Notes under the pieces: model-generated
What the model saw: only the letters and a program-made list of their open reading frames with translations
The model's database searches: none
What the model was told of the DNA's origin: nothing
Source: Candidatus Peribacter riflensis
Lineage (GTDB): Bacteria; Patescibacteriota; Gracilibacteria; Peribacterales; Peribacteraceae
Length of the DNA stretch: 32,000 nucleotides
Assembly (NCBI GenBank): GCA_001430755.1
Contig: CP013062.1
Location: 1,170,001-1,202,000, forward strand
Direction of reading: 5' to 3'
Position numbers and translations under genes: made by a program
Part shown: positions 3,733 through 28,220 of the stretch, piece by piece
How the letters are laid out: each line of letters opens with the position of its first letter
Position numbering within the stretch: the stretch's first letter is position 1

Positions 3733-5264
3733 ACGAGAGTCGGTCTCCGTCCATGCCACTCCGTGGCCTGCTCATAGGCGTGGCCTGCGCGCAGAATCGT
3801 CTCTTCGCCCCATTGCGGTCCCAAAATCTGCATGCCGATCGGCAGGAGGTCATCCTCCTTCGCTCCCTTCGGAGCTTCGGAGGATGGTTTCGCTTTCGCG
3901 AAACCACACGGGATGGAGAGCCCCGGGATGCCGGCGAGGTTTATTGAGACTGTGAAGATGTCTTCCAGATACATCTGCACGGGGTCATCGGTGTGGGCGC
4001 CGATGGTGAAGGCCGGGGTGGGGGCCACGGGCGTGAGGAGGCAATCCACTTTCTCGAATACCTGATCGAAGTCGCGCTTGATCAGCGTGCGCACGCGCTG
4101 TGCCTGACGGTAGTACGCGTCGTAGTACCCGGCCGAGAGCGCGTAGGTGCCAATCATGATGCGGCGCTTCACTTCGTCGCCGAAGCCGCTACTTCGCACG
4201 CGCTCGTAGTATCCGATCAGGTTCTCACGCTCCGGAACGGTATGACCGAAACGCACACCGTCGTACCGGGCCATATTCGAACTCACTTCGGAGGGTACAA
4301 TGACGTAATACGTCGCGATGGCGTACGGTGAGTGGGGTAGGCTCACATCGACGATCTTGGCTCCCAGCGAGGCATATACCTTGGCCGCCTCGCGCACAGC
4401 TGCCTCCACCTGCGGGTCCATTCCCTTAATGAAGTACTCCTTGGGTAGACCGATCTTCATGCCCTTCACGCCCTGCTTGATGGTCTGCGTGTAGTCCGGC
4501 ACGGGCACGTCGCCGGTGGTGGCATCGAGCGGGTCTCTTCCTGCAATCGCGCTGAGGACAATGGCCGCATCCTCCACCGTCTTCGTGAGTGCGCCGATGG
4601 AATCGAGCGAGCTCGCCATACTGAGGACCCCGTACCGGCTGGTGCGGCCGTAGGTGACCTTGAGCCCTGTACAACCGCAAAAACCCGCAGGCTGGCGTAT
4701 CGATCCTCCTGTATCCGTCCCGAGTGCGAACAGGCACTCATCCGCCGCGACAGCGGCAGCCGATCCGCCGGAAGACCCCCCCGCCACACGCGAGTGATCC
4801 CACGGGTTCTTCGTCACGCCGAAACAGCTCGTCTCGGTGGAGGCACCCATGGTGAATTCATCGGTATTGGTCTTGCCCAGACTCACGGCGCTTTGGGCCT
4901 TGAGCCGCTTCGTCGTCGTGGAATCGAATGGCGGAATGAAATCCCGCGCCCTGCCGCGATCCGAAGGATCTGCTGCAGGGTTTCTCAATATATTGGAGCA
5001 TGCGGTGGTGGGAACGCCCTCCTCGCAGAAGACGTCTTTGGCCAGGTATGGGATGCCGGCGAGCGGATGATCGAATGCCCCCTTCTTATCTGTCTTTTTG
5101 GCTTCATCCAGGGCTCGATCGAAATTACGGTGCACCACGGCATTGAGGGATTTGTCGACGGATTCGATCCGCTCGATGCAGGCACGGGCCAGCTCCACAG
5201 CGGTGAGCTCACCGGCTTTCAACCGCGCGTGCGCCTGGCCGATGGTGAGCGAGGCGCTGCTCAT
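3729..5264 (-). CDS. gatA: Glutamyl/aspartyl-tRNA amidotransferase subunit A
   Basis: 511 aa. It carries an amidase signature region ([13 protein letters not shown]...[12 protein letters not shown]). It lies immediately downstream of gatC with abutting stop and start (5265/5264). Confidence 0.93.
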
Positions 5265-8531: not shown

Positions 8532-8560
8532 TTGATTTATTATGAATTTTATTACATAAT
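8532..8560 (+). promoter_or_regulatory. Putative sigma70-type promoter for the tandem csrA gene
   Basis: TTGATT (8532-8537), a 17-nt spacer, then CATAAT (8555-8560). It lies in a locally AT-rich patch of the divergent fbaB/csrA spacer. A TTGACA also occurs at 8521-8526. Confidence 0.3.
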
Positions 8561-8684
8561 GCCAGTTACGTTCCGTTCCTTCCTTTGGGCGCAATGGATG
8601 TGCCAACGCGGTCCCGCACTGCGTGACTCAAGAGGGAAGTGAATCTACGGAGCGATGCTCTTTTTCCAAGGAAGGAGGGTTAGG

Positions 8685-9002
8685 ATGCTTGTCCTCACCC
8701 GTTCTCTCCACCAGGTGATCTTGATCGGCGGAACTATTGAAGTTGCTGCTGATCGGATCGGTTCCAGGGTTGTCAGGTTTTCTGTCCGGGCTTCGGGGTA
8801 TCCGATTGCCCGAGGCGAGTGCCCCGCTGCGGGCTCTGCCTCAAAGGACGGAGTCCTGATCCTTGCGCGCAAGCGCGGGGAGCGGATTCTCATCGGTGGT
8901 GACATCGTTGTCACCCTTCTGAGGATTGTCGGCAACCGTGTGAAGGTGGGCATCACCGCCCCGTCGGAGGTGGTTATCCTCCGCGACGAGCTGGTGGTGT
9001 AA
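8685..9002 (+). CDS. csrA: Tandem CsrA-CsrA fusion protein (two CsrA domains in one 105-aa chain)
   Basis: Domain 1: MLVLTRSLHQVILIGGTIEVAADRIGSRVVRFSVRASGYPIARGE. The linker is CPAAGSASKDG. Domain 2: VLILARKRGERILIGGDIVVTLLRIVGNRVKVGITAPSEVVILRDELVV. Both align to canonical CsrA ([48 protein letters not shown]). SD GGAGG at 8673-8677. There is no stop or ATG/GTG between the halves. Confidence 0.8.
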   Translation: MLVLTRSLHQVILIGGTIEVAADRIGSRVVRFSVRASGYPIARGECPAAGSASKDGVLILARKRGERILIGGDIVVTLLRIVGNRVKVGITAPSEVVILRDELVV

Positions 9003-9029
9003 GAGCAAGTCACTGGCATTCAGTGGCTA

Positions 9030-9063
9030 CCCCGTAACGGCGATTGTCGCTACGGGGTTTTTT
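9030..9063 (+). terminator. Rho-independent terminator after tandem csrA
   Basis: CCCCGTA ACGGCGATTGTCGC TACGGGG followed by TTTTTT (9058-9063). Confidence 0.75.
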
Positions 9064-9298
9064 GTGTCGTTTTTCGATGAGAGCTACTACTTTATATGCT
9101 CTTTATAAGACCAGATTCGTCTGGTCTCACTTTTTCCGGCCAACGTGTTGTTGGTTGGGGCCGACAGGGGTTATTCGCCCTTCCTCTACCGGTTTTTTAA
9201 GAGCCGTTTCCTTCACTTCTCTCGCAGGAGCGCGTAGCGTTTCGGCTCTCTTAGGGGCTTTCTCTAAGAGATCGCTCTGTGACAGTGAAGGTTTTTTT

Positions 9299-9407
9299 AA
9301 GCTCCCGACAGGCTGGAGGATCTCTGGCGTGTCGGGAGCTTAATGGGCCCTCCGAAGTCGGCCCCTCCCTCTTTCCTCTTTCCGCCTCAAGGAGGCTGGA
9401 GGATGCC
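9299..9407 (+). promoter_or_regulatory. csrA-2 leader with GGA motifs in a hairpin loop and across the SD (candidate CsrA autoregulatory sites)
   Basis: A 12-bp stem AAGCTCCCGACA (9299-9310) / TGTCGGGAGCTT (9330-9341) presents GGAGGA (9315-9320) in its loop. The SD region is AAGGAGGCTGGAGGATGCC (GGAGG 9391-9395, GGAGGA 9398-9403), just before GTG 9408. Confidence 0.4.
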
Positions 9408-9629
9408 GTGCTCGTGCTCAGTAGGAAGAAGAACGAGAGCATCGTCATCAACGACGACATTACAATCGTCGTCGTTGAGATCCGCGGCGACAAGGTGCGC
9501 CTGGGGGTTGAGGCCCCCAAGGAGGTGCCCGTGCACCGCCGTGAGGTGTTCGATGCGATCCGTCGCAACGAAGCTGCGACGGAGGAGAAACCGACAGGGG
9601 GGCAGGATGGCCCTCCTGCCACAGGGTAA
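9408..9629 (+). CDS. csrA: Carbon storage regulator CsrA (single-domain paralog), 73 aa
   Basis: (V/M)LVLSRKKNESIVINDDITIVVVEIRGDKVRLGVEAPKEVPVHRREVFDAIRRNE is a near-consensus CsrA. A GTG start at 9408, in frame with ORF 9279..9629, is preceded by a strong SD. The ORF-track N-terminal extension is not CsrA-like. Confidence 0.85.
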   Translation: MLVLSRKKNESIVINDDITIVVVEIRGDKVRLGVEAPKEVPVHRREVFDAIRRNEAATEEKPTGGQDGPPATG

Positions 9630-12199: not shown

Positions 12200-15100
12200 A
12201 TGGATATTTCCCGCTTTAAGAGAGCCTGTGCGGGTCTGTCCGTCGCAGCGATCATGCTGACCCAGGTCGGCACGGCGTTTGCAGCGTACAGCGATGTCCC
12301 GTCAGGCGTGTGGTACAAGGATGCCGTCGAGGCCTTCGTCGACGCCGGTTACCTTGATGCCACACAAGCGCGCTTTCGTGGTGGCGACACCGCAACGCGC
12401 GCCGAATTTACCAAGCTGATCGTCATGCTGAATGGCGGTCTGCTCTCCACTCCTCCGGCTGTGCCGAGCTTCAACGACGTGCCGACTGGCGCGTGGTTCT
12501 ACGCGTACATGGAGGAAGCAGCCAAAGAAGGCTGGGTTCGTGGAGACAATAACTGCTACGGCTCGAAGCCGTGCTACGGACGCCCGAACTCGAACATCAA
12601 TCGAGCAGAGGCAGCCGCTCTCATCGTCCGTGCCTTCGGGCTGGAGTCGACCGGTTCTGCCGCGCAGTTCGTCGACAATCCTTCCGGCCAGTGGTACACG
12701 GAGCCCATCCAGACTGCTGCAGATCACTGTGTCTTGCAGGGTGACGACTCCACGGGTCGCGTCCGCCCCTCTGACAACATGAACCGCGCAGAAATGGTGG
12801 TCATGCTCCACCGCGTCGACCAGGGTCTGACCTTCGGTGTCGATTGTGGTCAGGGCCAGGTGACCGCTCCCGCGATCAAGTCTGTCATGGCAACATCCGC
12901 GACGACCGTCGAGGTCGAGTTCACGGTGGCCATGCAGAAGGCTTCATCCGAGGACAAGACCAACTACACGGTCTCCGGCTCCCCGGTTGTGCCGATCAAT
13001 GCCGCCAAACTCATCGCCAAGGACACAGTTGAGCTCACGCTCGGCGAAGAGATGGTTGCAGAGCACGAGTACACCCTCGAGGTGAAGGATGTCGAATCTG
13101 AAGATGGAGACATGGTCTCGGGCACCAGGACCTTCGATGGCTACGCAGCCATTGTGAAGGGCGACGGTGAACTCGAGGTCTCCCTCTCGTCCAAGAACCC
13201 CCGCGGCGACACCGTTCCGAAGGGTGCCGTGGGCGTCGTGCTCCTCTCCACTGACTTCACCGCGTCCTGCAAGGACAAGGTGGAAGTGGAGAACCTCACC
13301 GTCCTCCATGAGGGCTTCGGTGAGTCCACCGACGTTGATGGCGTGTACGCCGCCGTGAATGGCGCGCGTGTCACGCGCAAGCGGACGATCGATGCGCAGG
13401 ATCAGACCGCAGATCTGCGGTTCTCCTCCGCACTCGTGATCGATCCGTGCGAGACCGTGACGGTCGACCTCGTCGCGGATTTCAACTCTACGGCCACCAC
13501 GGCTGCAGAGCACAACTTTGTGGTCGAACTGCCGTCTGATGTGACGAGCAATGCCCAGGAGGTCACCGGGAACTTTCCGCTCCGCGGTGAGACCTTCAAG
13601 ATTGCAGCCATCACAAGCGGCATCATCACCATCACGTACCGCTCGGTGAACCCGAGCCAGGTGCAGGTGGGAGACAAGGGTGTTGTCATCGGCAAGTTTG
13701 AAGTCGATGCCGACTCCACCGAGGATCAGACGCTGTACTCGATGACCTTCGAGAACAACAGTTCCGCCTCTGACGGCGACTTCGTCAACGTGGCAGTCCG
13801 CCGCACAGATGGCACGGTCCTCACGAACACCGTCGCACAGACGGTCGGTGATTTTATCACGCTGGTCTTCGATCCTCCGTTCACAGTTTTGGAGGGCGAC
13901 AAGATCACGCTCGAAATCGTTGCCGACATTCTGAACGGTGCTGATAAGTCCATCCAGATGCACTTCGAAGAGAGCTCTGACCTCTTCGCCGTCGGTTCCC
14001 TGTACGGGTACGGCGTGAACGGTCAGCTCTACGGTTCGCAGGTGTCCATCCCGACGGACAACGCGACCACGGTGACCATCGACGCTGGTGAATTCACCAT
14101 CGGCATCAATGGCCCGTCCACCGCGCAGTACACCAGCGACACGAATGATGCAGTCCTCGCCAACATCGAGTTCAACACCGGTGGTGAGGATATCGACATC
14201 AAGAACATCTACATGCTCGTCCTCGGCCAGACCTCCACGGGTGCCTACATGTGCGAGAACAACGGCGCACGAGGAGCAGCGACAGTATGTAATGACACCG
14301 AAGGCGCAGATGAGATCTCTGACATGATGGAAGGCATCGAAATCCGCAACAAGACCACGGGTCGTGCGGTTTCGGGTGTCCGCCTCACGGCGACCGGCGG
14401 CTCCGGCAACGCAGCCACGGCCGTCATGGGCCAGTACCAGATCTACCGCTTCGACGACTTCGTCGTGAAGGGCAAGGAGACCTGGCAGTTCCGCGCGGAC
14501 TTCACTTCCGTCTCGGGTGGTCACCCGGGGAACGGAGACAAGTTCCGCATCTACATCTGTGGCGAGCCCACACATGTATTGGACTCAAACAACAACCTGG
14601 CAACGAACACCGCGACCTGCAGCTTCGGAGGCGTCTTCGGAGCAGGTGGGACCGTGACAGCTGCCTCTTCTTCCTACTACATGACGGTCGAAGGCATCTC
14701 CACGGGTGACAAGGTCGGTGATGTCCGCCCGCGTGGCGACATTGCCGGTAACGTCATGGAGGTGATCGACGCCAGCCTCACAGTGGAGGTCAAGGCCATC
14801 GCCGCGTCGGATTCTGCCGTCGAGAACGCGAAGGACCTGAATCTCTTCCGCTTCGAGGCCAAGGCCAGCTCCGCAGAAGACCTGCTCTTCACGAAGGCAG
14901 TCTTTGAGGCGGATGTCGGCACCCTCAATGACGCGAACAACTACTCGCTGTGGGTAGACACCGATGGCGATCGCGTGGTTGACACGGTCCTCGAGACCGG
15001 TGTTGCCAACCAGTCGAGCCAGGTGACGTTCTCCGAACTCGCAGGTGGCGGTTACGTGCTCCCGAAGGAGCAGACCGTCGTCTTCGAGGTTCACGGTGAC

Positions 15101-16495
15101 ATTGCCTCCTCGATCACGGGTACGAACCTGCGCATCTCCTTCGATACGGGAGCCACGGTGACCTACATCGAATCCGAGAAGCTCGCCGATGGCACCAGCT
15201 TGTCTGGTATCAAGACCAACGGCGTCTGCTCTGGGAGCTGCGATATCACGGTGACCACGGTGAAGTCCACCAACTATGCTCTCCGGAACCAGGGAGACCT
15301 GTTCGTCTCGCTCGATTCCCAGACCATCGGCGCCCGCCAACTGCTTGGTGGTACGCTCGGTGAGCCGGTACTCCGCATCAAGATGCATGCAGAGTTCGAA
15401 GACATTGATGTGACGGACCTCATCATCAACTCTTCAGGTAGTACGGCGGCTTCCGTCGACTCTCTGGAGATTTGGCTGGAAGGCGCCACCCAGGCTGCTG
15501 CAGTCAGCGGCGGCTGTGGAAGCGCAGATGTACTGAACAAGAACTACACGCCCTACACCTCCGCTTCGGGTACAACCGCTTTCTGCTTCACGTTGGATAA
15601 CAAGCAGCTCGTGGTCCCGCGCGGTGAGGACGTGAAAGTTCTCGTCCGGCCTCGCATCAAGACTGATGTGAATGGCGCGTCGAGCGGCAACTTCTACGCG
15701 TTCTTCATTGATCACACGCCTGCTTCCAATGACTCCACCGGAACCGGATCCGTCCGCGCACGCGGTGTTGCCTCGAGCAACAACCTGACTGCCAACGACG
15801 GTGACGCTTCGGCGGAGGGTGAAGTGTTTATCGGCCGCACATCGGCCAACGCGACGAACGTTCGTGTCAGTGGTAACTACAACGAAACGGTCCTCGCGAA
15901 GATCTCCACGATCACGAACGGTGGTGCTGCTACGGGTACAGTCCCGAGCGGTGCTGACCGCGAGATCGGAGCCTTCACCTTCACGGCCGCCACGAACGGC
16001 AACACCAAGGATGGTACGAACCAGTGGGTCCTCTCGGGTGCTGTCTTCACAGTGAACGGCACGAACGTGAACATGGCGACAACGGGCTTCAAGATCTACA
16101 ACAAGGCCACGTCCCAGTCGACGGCTATGGCCTGCCAGGGGTACAACACTTCTGGCACGGCATTGGTCGGAACGGCTTCCGGCGTGTTCCTTGTGAACTG
16201 TGCTGGTCTCTCTGCAACCACCACGACGGTGAATACCGCGGTGGATTCCGGTCAGGCCATCACACTCGTGCTGCTCGCGAACGTGACGAACACCAATACG
16301 GCTGCTTCGAGCGGAGGCTCGAGCATCCTGCAGGTGTCTCTGAACGACTTCACGAACGTCACGAAGAAGCTCAATGGCGAAGCAACGGGTAACAGCCGCA
16401 TTGAGTGGAATGACAAAGATAATGCTGACACGGATACCTTCACATGGGTGGAGTACCCGGACAGCGCTATCAACTCCACGACGTATCGTGGCTAA
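12200..16495 (+). CDS. S-layer / cell-surface protein: signal peptide, 3 SLH domains, long beta-rich Thr/Ser/Asp/Val-rich region
   Basis: 1431 aa. The signal peptide is MDISRFKRACAGLSVAAIMLTQVGTAFA. Three SLH-like modules are present: YSDVPSGVWYKDAVEAFVDAGYL...TRAEFTKLIVML; FNDVPTGAWFYAYMEEAAKEGWV...NRAEAAALIVRAF; FVDNPSGQWYTEPIQTAADHCVL...NRAEMVVMLHRV. The remainder is acidic and low in Cys, with Ig-like repetitive composition. Confidence 0.85.
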   Translation: MDISRFKRACAGLSVAAIMLTQVGTAFAAYSDVPSGVWYKDAVEAFVDAGYLDATQARFRGGDTATRAEFTKLIVMLNGGLLSTPPAVPSFNDVPTGAWFYAYMEEAAKEGWVRGDNNCYGSKPCYGRPNSNINRAEAAALIVRAFGLESTGSAAQFVDNPSGQWYTEPIQTAADHCVLQGDDSTGRVRPSDNMNRAEMVVMLHRVDQGLTFGVDCGQGQVTAPAIKSVMATSATTVEVEFTVAMQKASSEDKTNYTVSGSPVVPINAAKLIAKDTVELTLGEEMVAEHEYTLEVKDVESEDGDMVSGTRTFDGYAAIVKGDGELEVSLSSKNPRGDTVPKGAVGVVLLSTDFTASCKDKVEVENLTVLHEGFGESTDVDGVYAAVNGARVTRKRTIDAQDQTADLRFSSALVIDPCETVTVDLVADFNSTATTAAEHNFVVELPSDVTSNAQEVTGNFPLRGETFKIAAITSGIITITYRSVNPSQVQVGDKGVVIGKFEVDADSTEDQTLYSMTFENNSSASDGDFVNVAVRRTDGTVLTNTVAQTVGDFITLVFDPPFTVLEGDKITLEIVADILNGADKSIQMHFEESSDLFAVGSLYGYGVNGQLYGSQVSIPTDNATTVTIDAGEFTIGINGPSTAQYTSDTNDAVLANIEFNTGGEDIDIKNIYMLVLGQTSTGAYMCENNGARGAATVCNDTEGADEISDMMEGIEIRNKTTGRAVSGVRLTATGGSGNAATAVMGQYQIYRFDDFVVKGKETWQFRADFTSVSGGHPGNGDKFRIYICGEPTHVLDSNNNLATNTATCSFGGVFGAGGTVTAASSSYYMTVEGISTGDKVGDVRPRGDIAGNVMEVIDASLTVEVKAIAASDSAVENAKDLNLFRFEAKASSAEDLLFTKAVFEADVGTLNDANNYSLWVDTDGDRVVDTVLETGVANQSSQVTFSELAGGGYVLPKEQTVVFEVHGDIASSITGTNLRISFDTGATVTYIESEKLADGTSLSGIKTNGVCSGSCDITVTTVKSTNYALRNQGDLFVSLDSQTIGARQLLGGTLGEPVLRIKMHAEFEDIDVTDLIINSSGSTAASVDSLEIWLEGATQAAAVSGGCGSADVLNKNYTPYTSASGTTAFCFTLDNKQLVVPRGEDVKVLVRPRIKTDVNGASSGNFYAFFIDHTPASNDSTGTGSVRARGVASSNNLTANDGDASAEGEVFIGRTSANATNVRVSGNYNETVLAKISTITNGGAATGTVPSGADREIGAFTFTAATNGNTKDGTNQWVLSGAVFTVNGTNVNMATTGFKIYNKATSQSTAMACQGYNTSGTALVGTASGVFLVNCAGLSATTTTVNTAVDSGQAITLVLLANVTNTNTAASSGGSSILQVSLNDFTNVTKKLNGEATGNSRIEWNDKDNADTDTFTWVEYPDSAINSTTYRG

Positions 16496-18546: not shown

Positions 18547-18668
18547 GCTCGCGATCGCAGCAGTAACGATTGCGTAGTGAGCGCTGCACGCCTCACCATC
18601 GGACTCCCGCCCATTCTTTTGAAGGGCGCCGGGAGATCGGGTGTGTGTATTTCCTCCCTCCCCTTCCC

Positions 18669-21600
18669 ATGCCGAAGAAGGTTGCGCGCAAAACTACAAA
18701 ATCCAAGCCCGTTGCAAAGAAAACCCCTCCGAAGAAAGTAGCCCACGGTAAGGCGAAGGTGCATGCCGTAGCGAAGCAGCCGGCGCCCGTTGCCAGCAAG
18801 AAGCCCGTGCCTCTCGTGCTGGCCAAGAAACCGGCCCTGCCGCCCAAGCGCACCTATCGTATTCATGTGGAGGAGAAGATCCTGCCGCAGATTGTGCCGC
18901 CGATCGTGCCCCCCGCAGGGCGACTGCCGGCATCCATCCGCAATCTTCCCGCGCATCTCACGCCGAAGCGCATGACCGACGGACGCGTGTTTTTGACGGA
19001 GGAGGAGAACATTTCAGAAATTCTGCCGTCCTTGATCGAGATGCAGATCTTGAGTTACCGGTGGTTCCTGACAGAGGGTATCAAGGAGCTTCTCGAAGAG
19101 ATCAGCCCGATCACCGATTTCTCCGGTCGCAAGATGGAGCTCCGGATTCTCGGTCACGCCTTCGATCCTGCCAAGTACGACCCCGAGACATGCCGCCGCC
19201 GCAACCTCACCTACGAGGCGGCCATGAAGGGTCATGTGCAGCTCATCAATAAAGAGACAGGTGAAATCAAGGAGCAGGATGTCTTCCTTGGTTCGATCCC
19301 GCTCATGACGAATACGGGCACCTTCATCGTCGGAGGCATCGAGCGCGTGGTGGTGCACCAGCTCGTTCGCTCGCCGGGCGTCTTCTTCAGCAAAATGCCC
19401 GACTACCCCAAGTACAATGCCGCCAAGATCATCCCCAAGCGCGGCGTGTGGCTGGAGATCGAGACGGATCGTCGCGGCATCATCACCTGCAAGATCGACC
19501 GCAAGCGCAAGATCCCGATCACGCAGCTGCTGCGTGTGTTCGGCTACGCCACGGACCAGAAGATCCTCGACCTCTTCGCTTCGGTAAAGGGCAAGGATGC
19601 CGACTACATTCTCACCACGCTCGAGAAGGATTCCGTGCGCACCCTCGAAGACGCATACCAGAGCATCTACAGAAAGATCCGCCCCGGCGATCTGGCCACG
19701 CCTGAGAATGCCAAACAGCTCATCGACTCACTCTTCTTCGACTTCAAGAAGTACGACATGGGGCAGATCGCCCGCTACAAGCTCAATCGGCGTTTCGGTT
19801 TCAAGACGGACAATGACGAATCGCACCGCGTCTTCCAGGTGGGGGACTTTGTGGCGATTCTCAAAGAGCTCATCAACCTGAATAACGGCAAGGGTGTGCC
19901 GGATGACATCGATCACCTGGCCAACCGTCGCATCCGTTCCGTAGGCGAACTCGTGCAGAACAAGTACCGCGTGGGACTGGTCCGCACGGAGCGCATCATC
20001 AAAGACCGCATGACCGTGCTCGACATGGAGACGGTCACGCCCACCCAGCTCATCAACTGCCGGCCCATTACTGCGGCCATGCGGGAGTTCTTTGCGAGCT
20101 CCCAGTTGAGTCAATTCATGGACCAGACCAATCCGCTTGCAGAGCTCTCGCACAAGCGCCGTCTGTCGGCCATGGGCCCGGGCGGTCTCTCGCGCGAGCG
20201 CGCGTCCTTCGACGTCCGTGACGTGCACCCCAGTCACTACGGCCGCATCTGTCCGATCGCCACGCCGGAGGGTCCGAACATCGGTCTTGTGGTGCACTTG
20301 GCGGCGCTGGCCCGCGTGAATCCCTACGGGTTCCTCGAGACGCCGTACCGTGAAGTGAAGAATCTGGTTCCGCTGGATCCCGACAAGCTGCATGGGCGCA
20401 TGCTGGGCGATACGATCCGCGAAGACCGCAAGGTGCTTGCCAAAGAGGGCGATTTGATTGAGACCAAGGAGCTCGCCCGCAAAATCGTTTCTCTCTGCCG
20501 TCAGGAGGGGAAGCCCGGTGTACCCGTGCGTCCCTACGTGACGGGAAAGTTCCTCTACGTCGATGCCGAGCAGGAGCGCCATCTCACCATTGCGCAGGCG
20601 CAGACCAAGTACTCCGAGATGGGCGAATTCCTCTCGACGACGATTTCTGCCCGCCGCAGCGGTGAACCGGTGCTCGCGGATGTCCGCGACATCACGCACG
20701 TCGACGTGACCCCCAAGCAGATTCTGTCGGAGTCCACATCGCTCATCCCGTTCCTGGAGCACGACGACAACACGCGTGCATCCATGGGAACGAACATGCA
20801 ACGCCAGTCCGTACCGCTCATCCGTCCCGCAGCCCCGCTCGTGGGCACGGGTATCGAGGGTCTGACGGCGCGCGCATCGGGGCAGGCCATTCTGGCGGAG
20901 GAGGACGGCGAAGTGGTGGCCGTGGATGCCTCGCACATCGCTGTCGTCTACCGGTCCGGTCGCAAAGATCAGATCACGCTCTCCACGTTCGTACGTTCAA
21001 ACCAGGGCACGTGTTTCCTGGCGCGGCCGCGCGTGCGCGTGGGCGACAAGGTGCACCGCGGGTCCGTGCTGGCGGATGGTTCCGCCACAGAGGGAGGGGA
21101 GCTGGCGTTGGGCCAGAACCTGCTCGTTGCCTACCTGTCATGGGAGGGCGCGAACTTCGAAGATGCCGTGATCATTTCGGACCGTGTGGTGCGTGATGGC
21201 TACTTCGACTCCATCCACATCGAGTCGTACGTGACGGATGTGCGCGATACCAAATTGGGTTCCGAGACCGTCACGCGCGATATCCCGAATGTAGGTGAGG
21301 CGAAGCTCAAAGATCTGGATGCCGATGGTGTGGTGCGGATCGGTGCCACGGTGCATGAGGGCGACATTCTCGTCGGCAAGATCACGCCCAAAGGCGAGAC
21401 CGAGCTCACGCCGGAGGAACGCCTGTTACAGGCAATCTTCGGTGACAAGGCCAAGGACGTCAAAGATTCTTCCCTCCGCCTGCCTGGCGGAGCGGGTGGC
21501 AAGGTGGTGGACGTGCACGTGTTCGACCGTGCCGAAGGTGATGAGCTGCCCACGGGCGTCATCAAGCAGATCAAGGTCTTCGTCGCCCAGACCCGCAAGA

Positions 21601-22556
21601 TCCAGGTGGGAGACAAGATGGCCGGCCGTCACGGCAACAAAGGCGTCGTTTCGCGCATTGTGCCGGTGGAGGACATGCCATACCTCGAAGACGGCACGCC
21701 GGTGGATGTGATCTTGAACCCCCTCGGCGTTACATCACGCATGAACATCGGTCAGATTCTCGAGACGCATCTGGGGTGGGCCTGCGACAAGCTGGGTATC
21801 AAGATCGCCACGCCCGCACTCAACGGTATCTCTGTGGATCAAATCGAAGACTTTCTGAAGGCGGCGGGGCTTCCGGCCGACGGCAAAGTGCAGCTCTTCG
21901 ATGGGCGCACCGGCGAGCCCTTCTCACACAAGACGACGGTGGGCATCGTGTACATGCTCAAGCTTCTCCACCTCGTTGAAGACAAGATCCACGCCCGCAG
22001 CGTCGGACCGTACTCGCTCGTGACGCAGCAGCCGCTGGGAGGCAAGGCGCAGCACGGAGGCCAGCGCTTCGGAGAAATGGAAGTGTGGGCGCTGGAGGCC
22101 TACGGAGCGGCATACACGCTGCAGGAGATGCTGACGATCAAGTCCGATGACGTGATCGGCCGCAGCAAGGCCTACGAGGCCATCGTGAAGGGCGAACAGA
22201 TCCGTCGTCCCTCCATTCCAGAGTCCTTCAATGTGTTGGTCAAAGAGCTCCAGGCACTGGGACTCAAAGTCGAACTTCTGAAGTTCAAGGATGAAGTGCG
22301 GCCCGAAGAGCGCACGACGCTGGAAGAAGGGGAGATCGAGCAGGTGGAGCTCCGTTCCCGTGTCGAGGCCGAAGCCGAAGCCGAAGAGATCCTCAATGCG
22401 ACCGAGAAGATCTCGGAACTCGAGACGCCTGCGAGTGAAACGACCGAAGAAGTCGTCGGCGGCATCGAAGAGGGTGAGGCAGTCGAGGCTTCGGGCATCA
22501 CAGCCAAGGAGGAGATGAAAGAGTCGGTGAGTGAAGAGGCGATGGATGATGCTTAG
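18669..22556 (+). CDS. rpoB: DNA-directed RNA polymerase beta subunit
   Basis: Conserved RpoB blocks: PSLIEMQILSYRWFL, GTFIVGGIERVVVHQLVRSPGVFF, LSQFMDQTNPLAELSHKRRLSAMGPGGL, HPSHYGRICPIATPEGPNIGL, NMQRQSVPL, GDKMAGRHGNKGVVSRI, GGQRFGEMEVWALEAYGAAYTLQEMLTIKSDD. Start taken at MPKKVARK (18669). ATG 18972 (MTDGRVF) is the conservative alternative, and the ORF maximum is 18570. Confidence 0.93.
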   Translation: MPKKVARKTTKSKPVAKKTPPKKVAHGKAKVHAVAKQPAPVASKKPVPLVLAKKPALPPKRTYRIHVEEKILPQIVPPIVPPAGRLPASIRNLPAHLTPKRMTDGRVFLTEEENISEILPSLIEMQILSYRWFLTEGIKELLEEISPITDFSGRKMELRILGHAFDPAKYDPETCRRRNLTYEAAMKGHVQLINKETGEIKEQDVFLGSIPLMTNTGTFIVGGIERVVVHQLVRSPGVFFSKMPDYPKYNAAKIIPKRGVWLEIETDRRGIITCKIDRKRKIPITQLLRVFGYATDQKILDLFASVKGKDADYILTTLEKDSVRTLEDAYQSIYRKIRPGDLATPENAKQLIDSLFFDFKKYDMGQIARYKLNRRFGFKTDNDESHRVFQVGDFVAILKELINLNNGKGVPDDIDHLANRRIRSVGELVQNKYRVGLVRTERIIKDRMTVLDMETVTPTQLINCRPITAAMREFFASSQLSQFMDQTNPLAELSHKRRLSAMGPGGLSRERASFDVRDVHPSHYGRICPIATPEGPNIGLVVHLAALARVNPYGFLETPYREVKNLVPLDPDKLHGRMLGDTIREDRKVLAKEGDLIETKELARKIVSLCRQEGKPGVPVRPYVTGKFLYVDAEQERHLTIAQAQTKYSEMGEFLSTTISARRSGEPVLADVRDITHVDVTPKQILSESTSLIPFLEHDDNTRASMGTNMQRQSVPLIRPAAPLVGTGIEGLTARASGQAILAEEDGEVVAVDASHIAVVYRSGRKDQITLSTFVRSNQGTCFLARPRVRVGDKVHRGSVLADGSATEGGELALGQNLLVAYLSWEGANFEDAVIISDRVVRDGYFDSIHIESYVTDVRDTKLGSETVTRDIPNVGEAKLKDLDADGVVRIGATVHEGDILVGKITPKGETELTPEERLLQAIFGDKAKDVKDSSLRLPGGAGGKVVDVHVFDRAEGDELPTGVIKQIKVFVAQTRKIQVGDKMAGRHGNKGVVSRIVPVEDMPYLEDGTPVDVILNPLGVTSRMNIGQILETHLGWACDKLGIKIATPALNGISVDQIEDFLKAAGLPADGKVQLFDGRTGEPFSHKTTVGIVYMLKLLHLVEDKIHARSVGPYSLVTQQPLGGKAQHGGQRFGEMEVWALEAYGAAYTLQEMLTIKSDDVIGRSKAYEAIVKGEQIRRPSIPESFNVLVKELQALGLKVELLKFKDEVRPEERTTLEEGEIEQVELRSRVEAEAEAEEILNATEKISELETPASETTEEVVGGIEEGEAVEASGITAKEEMKESVSEEAMDDA

Positions 22557-22607: not shown

Positions 22608-22756
22608 GTGCCGTTCCAGATGGATACAGAACGCCATAAAGCCCTTGCATAAGCCAAAAAGTCATCATCCCTACAAAATCATCCCTGCACAGGCCTCCCG
22701 GGAGCACTCTCGGGTCTTTAGCCTTGGGGATCCATATTTCTTTCCCCCTATTTTTT

Positions 22757-23128
22757 ATGTTCAACGTGAACCGCGTCACTCTGCTTGGGAACGTCACACG
22801 CGATCCTGAGGTACGGGCGACCAAGACCGGCGTTGCGGTCTCCTCTATTGGTTTCGCCACCAATCGCGCGTGGCGGGATACTGAAGGCAAGCTTGAGCGC
22901 GAGCCGGAGTATCACAACCTGGTGTGCTTCGGCCCGCTGGCCGAGTTCGCCGAAAAGCGCGTGAAGAAAGGCGCCCCCCTGTACGTCGAGGGCCGGCTGC
23001 ACACCAGCCGCTACGAAACCAAAAAAGGGGCTCCCGCCAGCCGCACCGAGATTCTGGTGGACCGCTTCGTGCTCCTCTCTTCCAGAAAGAAGGGAGCCGT
23101 AGAAGCGGCGGCAGCGGAAGAGGCATGA
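22757..23128 (+). CDS. ssb: Single-stranded DNA-binding protein, paralog 1 (123 aa)
   Basis: The OB-fold N-terminus is MFNVNRVTLLGNVTRDPEVRATKTGVAVSSIGFATNRAWRD...YHNLVCFGPLAEFAEKRVKKGAPLYVEGRLHTSRYE. The short tail ends AAAAEEA. Confidence 0.88.
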   Translation: MFNVNRVTLLGNVTRDPEVRATKTGVAVSSIGFATNRAWRDTEGKLEREPEYHNLVCFGPLAEFAEKRVKKGAPLYVEGRLHTSRYETKKGAPASRTEILVDRFVLLSSRKKGAVEAAAAEEA

Positions 23129-23242
23129 TCATTGGATTCTCCAGGTCACTCCTCCCTCTTTCAGGCCGGGGGAGGGGTTCTTGGGGGTGAAGACTCGCCG
23201 TACTGTCTGGCGCGGTTGTTTCTCTCTGCTTATCATGCAGAT

Positions 23243-23641
23243 ATGAAATCCGTTAACCGCGTCACCCTACTTGGCAATGTCACCAGAGATCCTGAATTCA
23301 AGCAGACGACTGGGGGTCAGGCGGTCTGTACCTTCGGGCTCGCGACGAACAGGACGTGGAAAGACCCGAAGGGCGAGAGACAGAGTCTGGCGGAATTCCA
23401 CAACATCGTGGCATGGGGCGGGCTTGCAGAGTTCTGCAACCAGTACATCAAGAAAGGAAAGCCCCTCTACCTCGAGGGCTACCTCAAAACCCGCAGTTGG
23501 GACGGGCCCGCAGGGTCCAAGATCTTCCGCACCGAGATCGTGGCGGAGAATGTCATTCTGGTAGGCCCCCGGGAGGCTGCAGATAATGGCTTAGAAACAG
23601 GGGTTTCTGGAGAGGGAGAATTGTCTACGGATGAGGGGTGA
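23243..23641 (+). CDS. ssb: Single-stranded DNA-binding protein, paralog 2 (132 aa)
   Basis: MKSVNRVTLLGNVTRDPEFKQTTGGQAVCTFGLATNRTWKD...FHNIVAWGGLAEFCNQYIKKGKPLYLEGYLKTRSWD. The tail ends GEGELSTDEG. Confidence 0.88.
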   Translation: MKSVNRVTLLGNVTRDPEFKQTTGGQAVCTFGLATNRTWKDPKGERQSLAEFHNIVAWGGLAEFCNQYIKKGKPLYLEGYLKTRSWDGPAGSKIFRTEIVAENVILVGPREAADNGLETGVSGEGELSTDEG

Positions 23642-23712: not shown

Positions 23713-24600
23713 TCGGTGGCTCTATGTTTCTTTGTGCCTACCCGTAGCATTCGTTCCCCACACTTGTGGGGAGTTCTCGGATACTGCGGGTGTGCATAAG
23801 CCACCCGCTCTTTTTTATTCGGGCTCTGCCCGGGTAGAAAAGAAGAGCGACAGAATGGAGTAGGGCGGGCGGAAACGTACATCGCGTTCCTTCGCATCAC
23901 CGGCAGTGAAGAGAACAAGAATGATTACCATAAAGATCACGTGCGTAGTGTGCGGGCACATCCTGCCCGCTCCTTGCCCCGCATCAACAATGGTGTAGGG
24001 GTCCTGCGACACGTGAACAGCAATAATGAAAAACGTTACTCATCGCATCACATGGATGCCTCGACTCTGTACTCCGAAGAAGGACGTAGCCAGCTGCGAT
24101 AAGCCTCGGCAAGCCGCTAGGCAGGCGCTTGTAGCCGGGGATTTCCGAATGGGGAAACCCCATGGAAGTTATATTCCATGACCCCGCACTGTTAAGGTGT
24201 GGGGAGGTCACTCTGCGAACTGAAACATCTCAGTAGCAGGGGAAAAGAAATCAAATAGAGATTCTCCGAGTAGCGGCGAGCGAAAGGGGAACAGCCTAAA
24301 CCTCGTGCTTGCACGGGGGGTTGTAGGACCTCTTGTACCGATTCTGCTGTCATAGACGAACGTCCCTGGAACGGGCGGCCATAGCGGGTGAGAGCCCCGT
24401 AGTCGAAATGACAAAAGACGGGTGAGGATTCCTGAGTAAGGTCGGACACGTGAAATCCGGCCCGAATCCGGGTGGACCACCATCCAAGGCTAAACAGGTA
24501 CAGAGTTCAATAGCGGATAGTACCGTGAGGGAACGGTGAAAAGCACCCCGGAAGGGGGATGAAATAGTCTCTGAAATGTGATGCGTTCAAGGAATGGGAG

Positions 24601-24791
24601 CGGGTCCCACTTGTGGGTTCGACGGAGGTGGATGTTGTTGTACTCGAGTGGAGAAGAATTGTGAATAATGAATAAAGAATTATGAACGAATGATGCTTCT
24701 ATTTCCGTCATTCCTCATTCTTAATTCTTACTTCTTCATCCCTTTGAGAAAAGCAGCAATTATCCATCATCGAATCCAGAAGCGGGGCCCG
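24601..24791 (+). other. 23S helix-25-region expansion / possible intervening sequence (~190 nt) with an R2 AT-rich hairpin at its tip (24651-24740)
   Basis: Between the conserved GGAATGGGAGC and GTGACCGTGTGCCTTTTGCATAATGAGCC, E. coli has only a short hairpin. Here the base stem CGGGTCCC / GGGGCCCG encloses 191 nt, including GAGAAGAATTGTGAATAATGAATAAAGAATTATGAA...CATTCTTAATTCTTACTTCTTC. Confidence 0.75.
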
Positions 24792-25291
24792 TGACCGTGT
24801 GCCTTTTGCATAATGAGCCAACGAGTTTGTTGTCAGTGGCAAGGCTAAGGCAGTTCATAGCCGGAGCCGGAGCGAAAGCGAGTCTGAATAGGGCGTTTAG
24901 TCGCTGGCACAAGACCCGAAACCGGGTGAGCTATCCATGGGCAGGGTGAAGTCCCGCGAAAGCGGGATGAAGGCCCGAACCATTTGGTGTCACAAGACCA
25001 AGGGATGACCTGTGGATAGGAGCGAAAAACTTATCGAACCCGGAGATAGCTGGTTCTCCTCGAAATGCCTTTAGGGGCAGCCTCGTCACGCACGGCGGGG
25101 GGTAGAGCGACTGTTTGGGTGCGGGGGTCTTTTTGGACCTACCAAATCCTGACAAACTCCGAATACCCGCCCTTTGGTGACGGGAGTGAGACGGTGACGG
25201 CAAAGCGCCATCGTCGAAAGGGAAAGAGCCCAGACCATTTGCTAAGGTCCCCAATCGATCGCTCAGTGGTAAAGGAAGTGCAGGTGCATAA

Positions 25292-25326
<35 letters not shown>

Positions 25327-25659
25327 TAAAGAAAGCGTAACAGCTCACTGGTCTATGTATCTGTGCGCCGAAAATTACCGGGGCAAAGCGATCAACCGAA
25401 GCAATGGGTGTGCGGTTCCTTCGGGAGCCGTACGCAGTAGAGGAGCGTTCCGTCCAGCAGTGAAGCAGTATCGCGAGGTATTGTGGAGCGGACGGAAGCG
25501 AGAATGTTGGCATGAGTAACTACTAGGCAGGTGAAAACCCTGCCCGCCGAATCCCCAAGGTTTCCCACGCAACGTCAATCGGCGTGGGGTTAGTCGGTCC
25601 TAAGGCGAGGCCGAAAGGCGTAGCCGATGGAGAGCAGGTCAACATTCCTGCACCTCCTG

Positions 25660-25848
25660 AGGATCGTTCAAGGGCGGCAGTTGAACGTTTGTCCGACCTC
25701 TGTTCTCCACCATTTTGGAATTGAGAGGAATGATGAATAAAGAATTAGGAATTAAGGACAGTCTCCGTAATTCATAATTCATACTTCTTGATTCTCCTAC
25801 GATTCTAGAATGGTGGAGAATATGCCTGATGAAAAGGATACTGTCGTT
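25660..25848 (+). other. 23S domain III hairpin-tip expansion (~190 nt) with an R2 AT-rich hairpin at its tip (25718-25796)
   Basis: It is inserted between ATTCCTGCACCTCCTGAGG and TAGGAGCGGTGTGACGGAG, where E. coli has CTTGGTGTTACTGCGAAGGGGGGACGGAG. A 12-bp perfect extension stem TTCTCCACCATT (25703-25714) / AATGGTGGAGAA (25809-25820) carries GAATGATGAATAAAGAATTAGGAATTAAGG...TAATTCATAATTCATACTTCTTGATTC. Confidence 0.7.
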
Positions 25849-26308
25849 CTAGGAGCGGTGTGACGGAGAGGGACGTCCAGAGCGTCTCATTGACTTGACG
25901 TGGAAGGTACAAAGCGTTGATCCCGGGAGGGAAATCCCCCGGGTGAGCTGAGTGCCGATCCCGATTACTCCGCGCAAGCGGGGCGAGTCTGAACCGTTCC
26001 ACTCCCAAGAAAACCGTCGCTCCGAGAGTCTCAGGAGACCGTACCGCAAACCGACTCCGGTGGGGTGGTCGAGTAGACCAAGGTGAACGAGAGAACTCGC
26101 GTTAAGGAACTCGGCAATGAAGCGTCCGTAACTTCGGGATAAGGACTGCCCTTCTTCGCAAGAAGTTGGGCCGCAGCGAAAGAGCCCAGGCGACTGTTTA
26201 TCAAAAACACAGGTCCCTGCGAAGCCGTAAGGCAATGTATAGGGGCTGATGCCTGCCCAGTGTCAGAAGGTCACGTGAGAGGGTGTATGCCTTCAAACTA
26301 AGCCCTGA

Positions 26309-26362
<54 letters not shown>

Positions 26363-26624
26363 GGTCGATAAGAAACTTGCCCGAATGTCGCCGCAAGGCG
26401 CAGCACTAAGGAATCAGCCGTGTTGAAGTAAACAGATCACTTCTATCTTTCAGAGTTCCTATAAGTAGAAATATCAGCGTTGTACAAAACCAAGTGTAAA
26501 ACGTCGCTATATGCTGGAACATCCCATGCATCCCCTATGCCGCAAGGTACGGGGTGGGGACAATCAGCAGGAAACATCAGCATCATGCTGGTGGCTCCTC
26601 AGAGACTACACGCGACGGGACGAG

Positions 26625-26710
26625 CGAAGAATTAAGAAGTAAGAATTAAGAATTATGAAAAAGGAATTGTTATTTATTCCTTCATTCTTAATTCCAAATT
26701 CATAATTCCC
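26625..26710. repeat. R2: AT-rich hairpin repeat, intron copy 1
   Basis: CGAAGAATTAAGAAGTAAGAATTAAGAATTATGAA-AAAGGAATTGTTATTTATTCC-TTCATTCTTAATTCCAAATTCATAATTCC, preceded by GGGACGAGCG. Confidence 0.75.
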
Positions 26711-26800
26711 CCTCGTTCATGATATAGTCCGATCCCTGTGGCGACACAGGGTGGGAGTGAAAACGCCTCCCGACCTGATTCATTTCGAATCGGGGAACGA

Positions 26801-26878
26801 GCGAGAAGAAAGAAGTAAGAATTATGAATTAAAGAATAGATAATATTCTTTATTCTTAATTCCTTATTCCTCATTCTG
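26801..26878. repeat. R2: AT-rich hairpin repeat, intron copy 2
   Basis: GCGAGAAGAAAGAAGTAAGAATTATGAATTAAAGAATAGATAATATTCTTTATTCTTAATTCCTTATTCCTCATTC, preceded by GGAACGAGCG. The same flank occurs at intron copy 1, which suggests a tandem duplication. Confidence 0.75.
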
Positions 26879-26934
26879 GTCTGTGCGCTCCGGTTTCAAT
26901 CGGAGTCTCGTCTTACCAACGAGGGAACACGCGC

Positions 26935-27052
26935 CACAAATTCCATTCGGAAATAACGCGCCGAAGGCAAGCTCCGCTTGCCTGGAGGCGCAACCGCCGA
27001 AAGGGAAAGGGTGGCTCGTGGAGGGAAAACCGCGAGGTTTTCCATTCACGCC
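26935..27052 (-). repeat. R3: ~115-nt two-hairpin element, copy A (inverted, forms the 3' end of the intron)
   Basis: The reverse complement reads GGCGTGAATGGAAAACCTCGCGGTTTTCCCTCCACGAGCCACCCTTTCCCTTTCGGCGGTTGCGCCTCCAGGCAAGCGGAGCTTGCCTTCGGCGCGTTATTTCCGAATGG. It is collinear with copy B, with most positions matching by eye (not counted). Confidence 0.75.
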
Positions 27053-27616
27053 TAGTGAAGTTCCGACCCGCACGAATGGTACAACGGTCTGGGCACTGTC
27101 TCGACGCGAGACTCGGTGAAATTGCAATCCTGGTGCAAATGCCAGGTAGATCACGGAAGGACGAAAAGACCCTATGAAGCTTTACTATAAGCTGGCATTG
27201 CATTGTTAGTTTGCTTGCGCAGCATAGGTGGGACCCTCTGAAGCCGGGACTTTGGTTTCGGTGGAGGGGCCAGTGAGATACCACCCTTGCGTTCTGACGA
27301 TGCTCACCCCTCGGCATATACTCCGAAGGGGACAGTGCTTGCCGGGTAGTTTAACTGGGGCGGTTGCCTCCTAAAGCGTAACGGAGGCGCACAAAGGTCA
27401 ACTAGCGCCGGATGGAAATCGGCGTTGTCGTGTAATCGCACACGTTGGCCTGACTGCGAGGCTTACAGGCCGAGCAGAGACGAAAGTCGGTGATAGTGAT
27501 CCGGCACCCGAGCGTCTAACCACGCTCTTCCCACGTGGGTGGGGTGTCGCTCAACGGATAAAAGTTACTCTAGGGATAACAGGCTGATCGCTCCCAAGCG
27601 CCCACAGCGACGGAGC

Positions 27617-27675
<59 letters not shown>

Positions 27676-27688
27676 TGGCTGTTCGCCA

Positions 27689-27733
<45 letters not shown>

Positions 27734-27848
27734 TGGCCTCTATCCTCCGTGATCATTTGGGGACGTGAAAGACGCTGCTCCTAGTACGAGAGGACCGGAG
27801 TGGACGAACCTCTGGTGAACCTGCTGTCGCGTCAGCGGCAACGCAGGA

Positions 27849-27898
<50 letters not shown>

Positions 27899-28220
27899 CT
27901 CTTGAGATTGCGTCCCCCCATAAGCCCGCCGGAAGACGACCGGCTAGATCGGCCGCAGGTGTACGTACAGCAATGTACTTAGCCGAGCGGTACGAACGGG
28001 CAATTGAACGTTTTTCTTTTCGTACATTTGTACGAAGGATCCTGAGCGACCCCGCGTCAGCGGGGGAGTCGAAGGGTCTGTGCTGTTTACGTGTTACAGG
28101 CTCTGTATCCAAAGTCGGGTGCAGGGCAGGAGCGTGCAGGATGTGCGCACACGGCACGTCGTTCGCGAACGACGTGCCACGCCTGCGCATCATTCCGTTC
28201 TTTTCATTCAAAAGCCCAGT

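Follow-up and report, generated by a model that had tools for sequence, protein, structure and literature searches.

CsrA is among the most studied post-transcriptional regulators of bacteria, and its mechanism is that of a symmetric homodimer with identical faces that bridge two GGA sites. In CsrA and RsmE structures, each RNA face is made of β1 of one protomer and β5 of the other, and the key RNA-binding residues of CsrA are Leu2, Leu4, Arg6, Arg44, and Glu46 (E. coli numbering). Arg44 is referred to in both PMC5864733 and PMC7652899, the latter of which also reviews the importance of dual-site binding by CsrA, and CsrA proteins appear in a family-wide review as homodimers of 65–75 residues, with heterodimers of paralogs “not demonstrated yet” (PMC7366521). 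Asymmetric CsrA has so far been artificial only, in the form of mixed R44A heterodimers and of the engineered protein Re-CsrA. Here, we describe a natural counterpart: a gene at positions 8685–9002 of a 32,000-nucleotide stretch of the Candidatus Peribacter riflensis genome (GenBank contig CP013062.1, positions 1,170,001 to 1,202,000 of the forward strand; the whole stretch is referred to below as the window) encodes a 105-residue protein in which two CsrA domains follow one another in a single chain (Table 1). We consider it likely that this tandem protein is a monomeric single-chain CsrA pseudo-dimer with two non-equivalent faces for GGA-containing RNA, and that it regulates translation initiation regions while being insulated from the canonical CsrA encoded next to it.

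The tandem protein is closest to Re-CsrA (Ye et al., 2018, Nat Commun 9:1196; PMC5864733), in which residues 1–44 of CsrA, with the helix deleted, are joined through GGGGSGGGGS to full-length CsrA, the aim being to leave a single CesT site on CsrA. Re-CsrA is soluble, forms one discrete unit, and crystallized as a CsrA dimer (Protein Data Bank [PDB]: 5Z38), and two Re-CsrA molecules are found per CesT dimer in an assembly of about 60 kDa (PMC5864733). The two proteins share a helix-less first core, a linker of ∼10 residues, and a second core; domain 1 of the tandem protein ends with R43-G44-E45, and there are 13 residues between the Arg44 equivalent and the second core (R43 to V57), as compared with 10 in Re-CsrA (R44 to M1). 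Unlike the tandem protein, Re-CsrA is artificial and consists of identical E. coli cores, the second of which retains its helix, whereas the halves of the tandem protein are diverged, there is no helix at all, and the linker is of a non-Gly/Ser type that is conserved in the family.

Functionally, the tandem protein is closest to the asymmetric R44A heterodimers of Mercante 2009, which, as relayed in PMC7652899, have one dead surface and still bind RNA but repress glgC incompletely; according to the same account, the two CsrA surfaces bridge sites 10–63 nt apart, and full repression needs both. These heterodimers likewise present two non-equivalent RNA surfaces, but they are built from mixed mutant subunits with no covalent link, and one of their surfaces is dead rather than specialized. 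The canonical homodimers (E. coli CsrA, PDB: 1Y00; Y. enterocolitica RsmA, PDB: 2BTI; and the P. fluorescens RsmE-RNA complex, PDB: 2JPP) belong to the same Pfam family as the tandem protein and resemble it in having five β strands per unit, with equivalents of the key residues present in both halves of the tandem; by analogy, the expected ligand would also be the same (i.e., GGA in hairpin loops and Shine-Dalgarno [SD] regions). They differ in that the tandem protein is one polypeptide, has differing faces, no helices, and a strongly diverged N half, and coexists with a canonical CsrA next door.

A previous sequence-only reading of the window had proposed a 105-residue open reading frame (ORF) with two complete CsrA-like domains joined by a short linker, the first domain being the more diverged. 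Profile searches bear out most of this description. The whole protein matches Pfam CsrA (PF02599) in two stretches (82.9 bits, E = 1.5e-23), and the two domains (residues 1–45 and 57–105) are separated by 11 residues, CPAAGSASKDG (residues 46–56), exactly as had been read. Each half also matches the family on its own, the C half (residues 50–105) with 59.4 bits (E = 3.3e-16) and the N half (residues 1–56) marginally, with 28.4 bits (E = 1.6e-6) against a cut-off of 27. The divergence of domain 1 is seen both in this score and in the sequence: by comparison with E. coli CsrA, one residue of the β4-β5 loop is deleted, and the changes P37S, V40Y, H43A, and E45G are found. The word “complete” has to be qualified: both CsrA β-cores are there, but both end right after β5, and the C-terminal α-helix is absent from the two halves. 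R43-G44-E45 of domain 1 leads directly into the linker, and at the end of domain 2 a single helical turn (residues 101–103) is predicted. Similarly, MLVLTR/VLILAR, the two IGG turns, and IARGE/ILRDE are where the earlier reading had put them, but its G.(R/N)V(R/K)(F/V) motif is shifted by one residue in one half relative to the other. Because the dimer core can do without the helix (compare residues 1–44 of CsrA in Re-CsrA), its loss makes the tandem protein a variant CsrA and does not exclude it from the family.

The equivalents of the five key residues are L2, L4, R6, R43, and E45 in the N half and L58, L60, R62, R100, and E102 in the C half, and the C half is 45%–49% identical to E. coli CsrA and RsmE. 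By profile, fold, and key residues, and with the helix absent, the tandem protein thus belongs to the CsrA family. It falls, however, under the NCBIfam CsrA equivalog cut-offs NF002469 and TIGR00202 (63.5 versus 73 and 60.8 versus 70.1), whereas the neighboring single-domain CsrA clears them (84.1 ≥ 73 and 78.8 ≥ 70.1) and scores 84.8 bits against Pfam; the tandem protein is therefore a distinct paralog and not the CsrA ortholog, and the neighbor is likely the bona fide ortholog and the partner paralog of the tandem.

The tandem protein is 100% identical to a “carbon storage regulator” of Candidatus Peribacter riflensis (Peregrinibacteria, candidate phyla radiation [CPR]) that is found on 31 contigs, the longest of 1,248,181 bp, and ten further clusters, each of exactly 105 residues and with 79%–84% identity, come from Peribacter, Peribacteraceae, and Peregrinibacteria assemblies (NCBI, JGI, ENA, and Logan). 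Mean column identity in the alignment of these 11 clusters is 88%, with both halves and the linker conserved. Pairwise Nei-Gojobori estimates of the ratio of nonsynonymous to synonymous substitution rates (dN/dS), obtained at synonymous sites that are near saturation (dS 0.7–1.0), are 0.10–0.35 (N half) and 0.16–0.45 (C half), with ∼0.16 for the complete gene in comparisons with the window sequence; both halves, including the diverged N half, are under purifying selection, and the linker is under selection as well. Three species-representative genomes have the same neighborhood (YidC, a class I aldolase on the minus strand, tandem CsrA, single CsrA, and CysS), and a deep ortholog (P0068, 103 residues, 38% identity) has the same two-domain build in an RnpA-YidC-aldolase-CsrA-CysS locus of a distant relative. 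A single-domain csrA lies next to the tandem gene both in locus L001, in the same order as in the window, and in the locus of the deep ortholog (L004/L005), in the opposite order.

These data leave next to no room for an artifact in which two neighboring csrA genes were merged through a missed stop or a frameshift, introduced in sequencing or assembly, or a tandem duplication was collapsed. Tandem paralogs are indeed error-prone in assembly, and a second csrA lies only 400 bp away, but the same unbroken ORF is present in all 11 clusters (79%–100% identity), which stem from several assembly sources, and in none of them is there a stop or a frameshift between the halves. This was one of two observations that the sequence-only reading had named as possible refutations, and the other, a first half that CsrA profiles fail to recognize, was likewise not borne out. 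The initiator Met of domain 2 has been lost (Val57, codon GTC), and because domain 2 has no start codon of its own, the fusion is a true one; the chain then stops five residues past Arg100. Architecture and locus are shared by the deep ortholog, and the Peribacter genomes are described as complete by their authors (PMC4736985). Because the halves are only ∼37% identical to each other and 36%–40% identical to the neighboring CsrA, a collapsed repeat or a recent duplication is excluded, and a recent origin from the neighboring csrA was rejected on the same values. We regard the artifact as effectively refuted.

The start codon was placed at 8685 because the upstream ATG at 8655, in frame in the window, is not in frame in the orthologs and the database relatives are all 105 residues long. 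UUAGGAUG overlaps the start codon, and GGAAGGAGG is unchanged in four Peribacteraceae loci, with AAGGAGG retained in six of six aligned loci, including that of the deep ortholog. An antisense ORF (8645–9019, 124 residues) was dismissed as a by-product of coding-strand composition, the CsrA profile matches and the pattern of selection all being on the plus strand.

To place the protein among its relatives, we searched 1.84 billion cluster representatives with a profile built from the 11 tandems and obtained 25,574 CsrA-family proteins at E ≤ 1e-3; nearly all of the best 150 of these 25,574 matches are 95–310 residues long and have at least two matched stretches. Domain counting with a hidden Markov model in 167 proteins found two CsrA domains in 147 (11 of them from Peribacteraceae), three in 3, four in 5, and one in 12. 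With ∼145 diverse natural clusters of 2–4 CsrA domains in the databases, the rarity implied by the sequence-only reading was overstated. Its remark that no single-chain CsrA was known holds for natural proteins, of which we found no description in full-text literature searches (tandem, fused, or single-chain CsrA; PF02599; Planctomycetes/CPR; CesT-CsrA; and Peribacter), but not for engineered ones, given the published Re-CsrA; the Peribacter genome paper does not mention CsrA (PMC4736985). Every source name of the tandem proteins is plain “carbon storage regulator,” and the architecture is for this reason easy to overlook; the taxa named among them are Peregrinibacteria and one Acidimicrobiales metagenome-assembled genome (MAG).

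Within single proteins, the identity between the first (D1) and second (D2) domains ranges from 16% to 92% (median 48%), and D1 is nearest to its own D2 in 14 of 145 proteins; CsrA fusion thus arose several times. The spacer from the Arg44 equivalent of D1 to the Leu2 equivalent of D2 has a natural minimum of 12 residues and a median of 22, as compared with 14 in the tandem protein and 11 in Re-CsrA, and the natural minimum looks like a geometric limit for closing the fold in cis. Gly immediately precedes D2 in 74 of 106 tandems. Other natural multi-domain CsrAs (P0022, P0068, the ∼145-residue Acidimicrobiales group P0298, and the four-domain proteins P0019 and P0021) have repeated CsrA domains as in the tandem protein, and those of the compact subgroup further share with it a helix-less D1, a RAPGY-type loop, the Gly before D2, and a short tail. 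In contrast, most other tandems have the longer spacers that set the median, keep the helix on D2, and include several separate recent duplications, with D1-D2 identities of up to 92%. None of these proteins appears to have been characterized.

Other architectures were also seen. Four CsrA domains per chain are found in P0019 (303 residues), P0021 (310), P0028 (275), P0029 (282), and P0043 (248), each of which could form two pseudo-dimers; tandem CsrA pairs occur inside two giant proteins, P0155 (2639 residues) and P0166 (5891 residues), and another tandem CsrA is encoded on an 8.3-Mb contig. A populous subfamily of 142–149 residues (P0298, P0289, P0313, P0325, P0327, and others, with one member named from an Acidimicrobiales MAG) combines a strongly diverged first domain (MLVLSRRPDSSILVGHDV...VQRIDE) with a canonical second domain that has its helix. 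A further observation concerns the C terminus, where many tandems carry an -AA ending that resembles the C-terminal end of the ssrA/ClpXP degron. This ending is present in 17 of 106 tandem representatives (15 of them among the 27 whose tails are ≤10 residues long) and in none of 102 single-domain CsrAs, and its bearers include relatives among P0002–P0011, P0022, P0026, P0038, P0076, and P0093. Of the Peribacteraceae tandems, 8 of 11 end in -LAA and two in -LVA, and the window protein (residue 105, encoded at 8997–8999) ends in -LVV. In the compact tandems, the -AA ending might reflect control by proteolysis.

We modeled the tandem protein with AlphaFold2 as a monomer, as the sequence-only reading had suggested. 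When the input alignment comprised 50 diverse tandem and single-domain CsrAs, the predicted structure is compact and has 5 + 5 strands, with a mean predicted local distance difference test score (pLDDT) of 89.1 (83–89 over five models) and a predicted template modeling score (pTM) of 0.82; with the 11 closely similar Peribacteraceae sequences as input, the model was unusable (pLDDT 45.4). The predicted strands are residues 2–7, 11–14, 18–25, 29–36, and 40–43 in the N half (pLDDT about 90–95) and 58–63, 67–70, 74–82, 85–91, and 98–100 in the C half, and confidence is lower in the linker (pLDDT 73–78). The top Foldseek matches in the PDB are all CsrA/RsmA/RsmE chains (2JPP, 2BTI, 1VPZ, and 5Z38; probability 1.00), with a root-mean-square deviation (rmsd) of 0.5–0.8 Å over 46–49 residues, target-normalized template modeling scores of 0.77–0.87, and 43%–50% identity (i.e., at least one half of the model matches CsrA protomers at <1 Å). 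It should be noted that the output is silent on which half was aligned; judged by the identity values, the superposition probably falls on the C half, and in a PDB sequence search CsrA chains were matched by the C half only. RsmN/RsmF of Pseudomonas (PDB: 4KJI and 4K59) is likewise a natural CsrA-fold variant in which the conserved Arg is retained and GGA RNA is bound, but it forms homodimers with a helix inserted between β2 and β3 and a rearranged strand order. The tandem model deviates from these structures by about 10.7–11 Å rmsd, the sequence match is limited to residues 69–103, and no internal helix is predicted; the tandem protein is not of the RsmN/RsmF type.

Since CsrA protomers need a partner to fold, two linked ones could in principle find it in trans as well as in cis: domain 1 could associate with domain 2 of another chain, giving a swapped dimer or an open polymer, or either domain could associate with a subunit of the neighboring canonical CsrA, for example titrating or modifying it. 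The canonical csrA always adjoins the tandem gene, heterodimers of CsrA paralogs are plausible though undemonstrated (PMC7366521), and a monomer AlphaFold2 run cannot separate cis from trans. We nevertheless find pairing in trans quite unlikely, given that Re-CsrA, with an even shorter linker, is a discrete unit with the stoichiometry described above, that the monomer model has a high pTM, and that natural spacers end at 12 residues, near the engineered 11, as fits a minimum for closure in cis, which effective local concentration should also favor.

Each face of CsrA being β1 of one protomer and β5 of the other, the fusion implies two differing RNA faces. Face A would combine β1 of domain 1 (MLVLTR) with β5 of domain 2 (VVILRDEL) and be canonical, and face B would combine β1 of domain 2 (VLILARK) with the variant β5 of domain 1 (YPIARGE, within RASGYPIARGE) and be specialized, with the critical Arg kept. 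An alignment of 29 diverse compact tandems with a mean identity of 42% has L2, R6, R43, R62, G89, A92, P93, and R100 as its unchanged columns; across ∼155 tandems, conservation of the Arg6 equivalent is 98% in D1 and 92% in D2, and that of the Arg44 equivalent is 97% in D2 and 84% in D1, where alignment gaps account for another 13%. The RA(S/P)GY...R.E variant of D1 is also seen in other subfamilies (P0022, P0054, and P0110), a recurrence that points to a face B that is specialized and not decayed.

It could also be that the N half is a structural partner and that face A alone binds GGA RNA, which would leave the protein monovalent and have it repress weakly or compete with the canonical dimer. 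Such an arrangement would agree with the diverged β4-β5 loop and β5 of domain 1, with its one-residue deletion and marginal Pfam score, and with the behavior of the CsrA heterodimer with one dead surface, which binds RNA but, as relayed in PMC7652899, cannot fully repress glgC (Mercante 2009). We judge it unlikely, however: the residues that would make up face B (R43 and E45 from domain 1, R62 from domain 2) are conserved, the two Arg residues being invariant in the 29 compact tandems, the RA(S/P)GY...R.E motif is itself conserved across subfamilies, and dN/dS is no higher in the N half than in the C half.

We also looked at the sequences flanking the gene. From the position of a promoter-like site, transcription would start near 8567. 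The promoter block hardly varies among four genomes, and the deep ortholog in L004 is preceded by a comparable TTGATA-17-AATAAT; promoter and leader together are 91% identical in the four genomes, with the synonymous sites of the gene itself near saturation. The leader has a predicted folding energy of −52.2 kcal/mol (z = −2.5) and contains six GGA motifs, as compared with 2.4 expected (P about 0.016). A-N-GGA in a hairpin loop is the canonical form of a CsrA binding site, and the hairpin predicted at 8588–8604 has this form; at the same place, the deep ortholog has GGCGUC-[AGGAU]-GGCGUC. In five distinct sequences, all cells of the 8588–8604 hairpin pair, with one compensatory and three one-sided changes, as compared with 15%–49% in slid controls. 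CsrA commonly regulates its own mRNA, and the tandem csrA leader is a plausible target of CsrA-type auto- or cross-regulation, the putative binding being read from sequence and predicted folds. Downstream of the gene, the stem of an intrinsic terminator is retained in L001–L003 despite base changes on both arms, as is its T-run; an automatic scan missed it because its loop is longer than 8 nt. Given this terminator, and with the promoter-like site upstream, tandem csrA appears monocistronic.

Some 45 nt past the terminator, there is a second conserved hairpin (9108–9127, plus strand; AGACCAGATTCGTCTGGTCT then CACTTTTTCC, T-rich to about 9137); its arms read GACCGG...CCGGTC in L003, a compensatory change, and it may either mark where a small transcript ends or serve as a back-up terminator. 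In the leader of the canonical csrA, a long, stable hairpin with GGAGGA around the apical loop is predicted at 9297–9343 (plus strand; z = −4.4 for 9290–9420), and there are more GGA motifs in its SD region (9391–9403). This hairpin was considered as evidence of cross-regulation and set aside, since the leader differs and the hairpin is not conserved in L001–L003.

In the mechanism that we favor, the two helix-less cores would interleave within one chain to give the β sandwich normally made by two subunits, so that the protein would be a monomer of about 11–12 kDa (estimated from its length) with its halves fixed at 1:1 and asymmetric two-site recognition. It would bind GGA-containing RNA, repress or remodel translation initiation regions in a CsrA-like manner, possibly including its own conserved leader, and would not exchange subunits with the canonical CsrA encoded 400 bp downstream. 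FliW-type antagonists use the C-terminal region of CsrA, and the tandem protein lacks the extended C terminus of FliW-partnered CsrA (Bacillus/Campylobacter type). CesT is likewise reported to bind the C-terminal helix region of CsrA (PMC5864733), and because the C-terminal helix is absent, the tandem protein would be without the region bound by CesT. The single-chain pseudo-dimer with two non-identical surfaces, as first put forward in the sequence-only reading, is supported by the profiles, the conservation, the selection on both halves, the AlphaFold2 model, and the precedent of Re-CsrA, with the interleaving being a prediction.

Several points weigh against this mechanism. The N half barely clears the Pfam cut-off (28.4 versus 27), and the whole protein falls under both equivalog cut-offs. 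Given the β4-β5 deletion and the substitutions in domain 1, face B may have low affinity or a different ligand, and the loss of both helices removes some of the RNA contacts seen in RsmE complexes. The quality of the AlphaFold2 model depends on the alignment (pLDDT 45 with the shallow 11-sequence input), the fit of the N half to a CsrA protomer is suggested by secondary structure and pLDDT, with the Foldseek identities pointing to the C half, and the predicted interleaving draws on pTM, secondary structure, and protomer-level superposition. In the leader, the GGA enrichment is modest at the P value given above, and the covariation of the 8588–8604 hairpin is non-significant with five sequences, the observed values being matched in 96 of 500 shuffles.

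The window as a whole is a housekeeping chromosomal region, with genes for a CDF transporter, a GatA-type amidase, RnpA, YidC, an aldolase, CysS, an SLH-domain giant, FemAB, RpoB, two SSBs, and 23S-5S rRNA. Pfam annotation of ten large ORFs in the window gave no FliW or flagellar genes, an Rfam scan of the window gave no Csr/Rsm small RNA (sRNA), and flagella are not mentioned in the Peribacter genome paper (PMC4736985). The tandem protein is not of the FliW-partnered type. The two adjacent SSB (PF00436) genes (22724–23128 and 23132–23641, plus strand; 134 and 169 residues), directly after rpoB (18570–22556), are tandem paralogs of another oligomeric nucleic-acid-binding protein. The SLH-domain giant, 3′ of cysS (12200–16495, plus strand), is a 1,431-residue protein with SLH and Big_5 domains that is likely located at the cell surface, and an SLH-domain giant gene is also found 3′ of cysS in the distant locus L004. 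In L001, an extra ORF of 174 residues (4163–4687, plus strand), absent from the window, lies between yidC and the aldolase gene. The 23S rRNA gene (24029–28017, plus strand) has 3,989 nt as compared with 2,925 nt in the model and contains a group I intron at 26432–26751 (60.5 bits), the remaining surplus length suggesting further insertions; a 5S gene is located at 28223–28338, and no 16S rRNA gene is found 5′ of the 23S gene within the window.

Table 1. Features of the tandem csrA locus (window coordinates)
Feature	Position	Strand	Description
Promoter-like site	8532–8560	+	TTGATT, 17-nt spacer, CATAAT; consensus scan
5′ leader	8567–8684	+	Structured, conserved; GGA at 8596, 8635, 8649, 8670, 8674, and 8683
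Leader hairpin	8588–8604	+	GGCGCA-[AUGGA]-UGUGCC; A-N-GGA in pentaloop; minimum free energy and centroid folds
Shine-Dalgarno sequence	8674–8678	+	GGAGG inside AAGGAAGGAGGG; six bases 5′ of ATG; read from sequence
Tandem csrA gene	8685–9002	+	ATG at 8685, 105 codons, TAA stop at 9000–9002; uninterrupted
Domain 1 (residues 1–45)	8685–8819	+	Diverged CsrA β-core without helix; Pfam 28.4 bits alone
Linker (residues 46–56)	8820–8852	+	CPAAGSASKDG; where a canonical protomer has its C-terminal helix; Gly56 directly ahead of domain 2
Domain 2 (residues 57–105)	8853–8999	+	Near-canonical CsrA β-core without helix; Pfam 59.4 bits
Intrinsic terminator	9030–9063	+	Hairpin CCCCGTAACGGCGA...TCGCTACGGGG at 9030–9057, then TTTTTT at 9058–9063; read from sequence
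Canonical single-domain csrA	9408–9629	+	GTG start, 73 residues, C-terminal helix and tail; Pfam 84.8 bits

That domain fusion is a common evolutionary step is known already and can be seen in the databases. The unstudied features are the natural occurrence of an asymmetric CsrA, the recurrence of the fusion, its pairing with a canonical paralog, and the unusual -AA C termini of the compact subgroup. The existence of conserved natural single-chain CsrAs with diverged halves means that the symmetry of CsrA has been broken repeatedly in evolution. Tandem CsrAs offer material for asking what each face does and whether subunits are exchanged between paralogs, and they could possibly be used as compact monomeric RNA-binding modules in synthetic biology. 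They also bear on how CsrA is controlled where FliW and recognizable Csr sRNAs seem to be lacking, as in this uncultured, reduced-genome CPR bacterium. More tentatively, natural single-chain CsrAs may be an unrecognized class of asymmetric regulators whose faces were free to diverge once fused, which read a directional bipartite RNA signal and do not mix subunits with a canonical CsrA in the same cell, the compact subgroup being controlled through -AA degron proteolysis instead of FliW or CesT; this broader view is possible but doubtful at present, and if it is true, the repeated independent fusion of CsrA domains would reflect selection for asymmetry, insulation, and proteolytic control.

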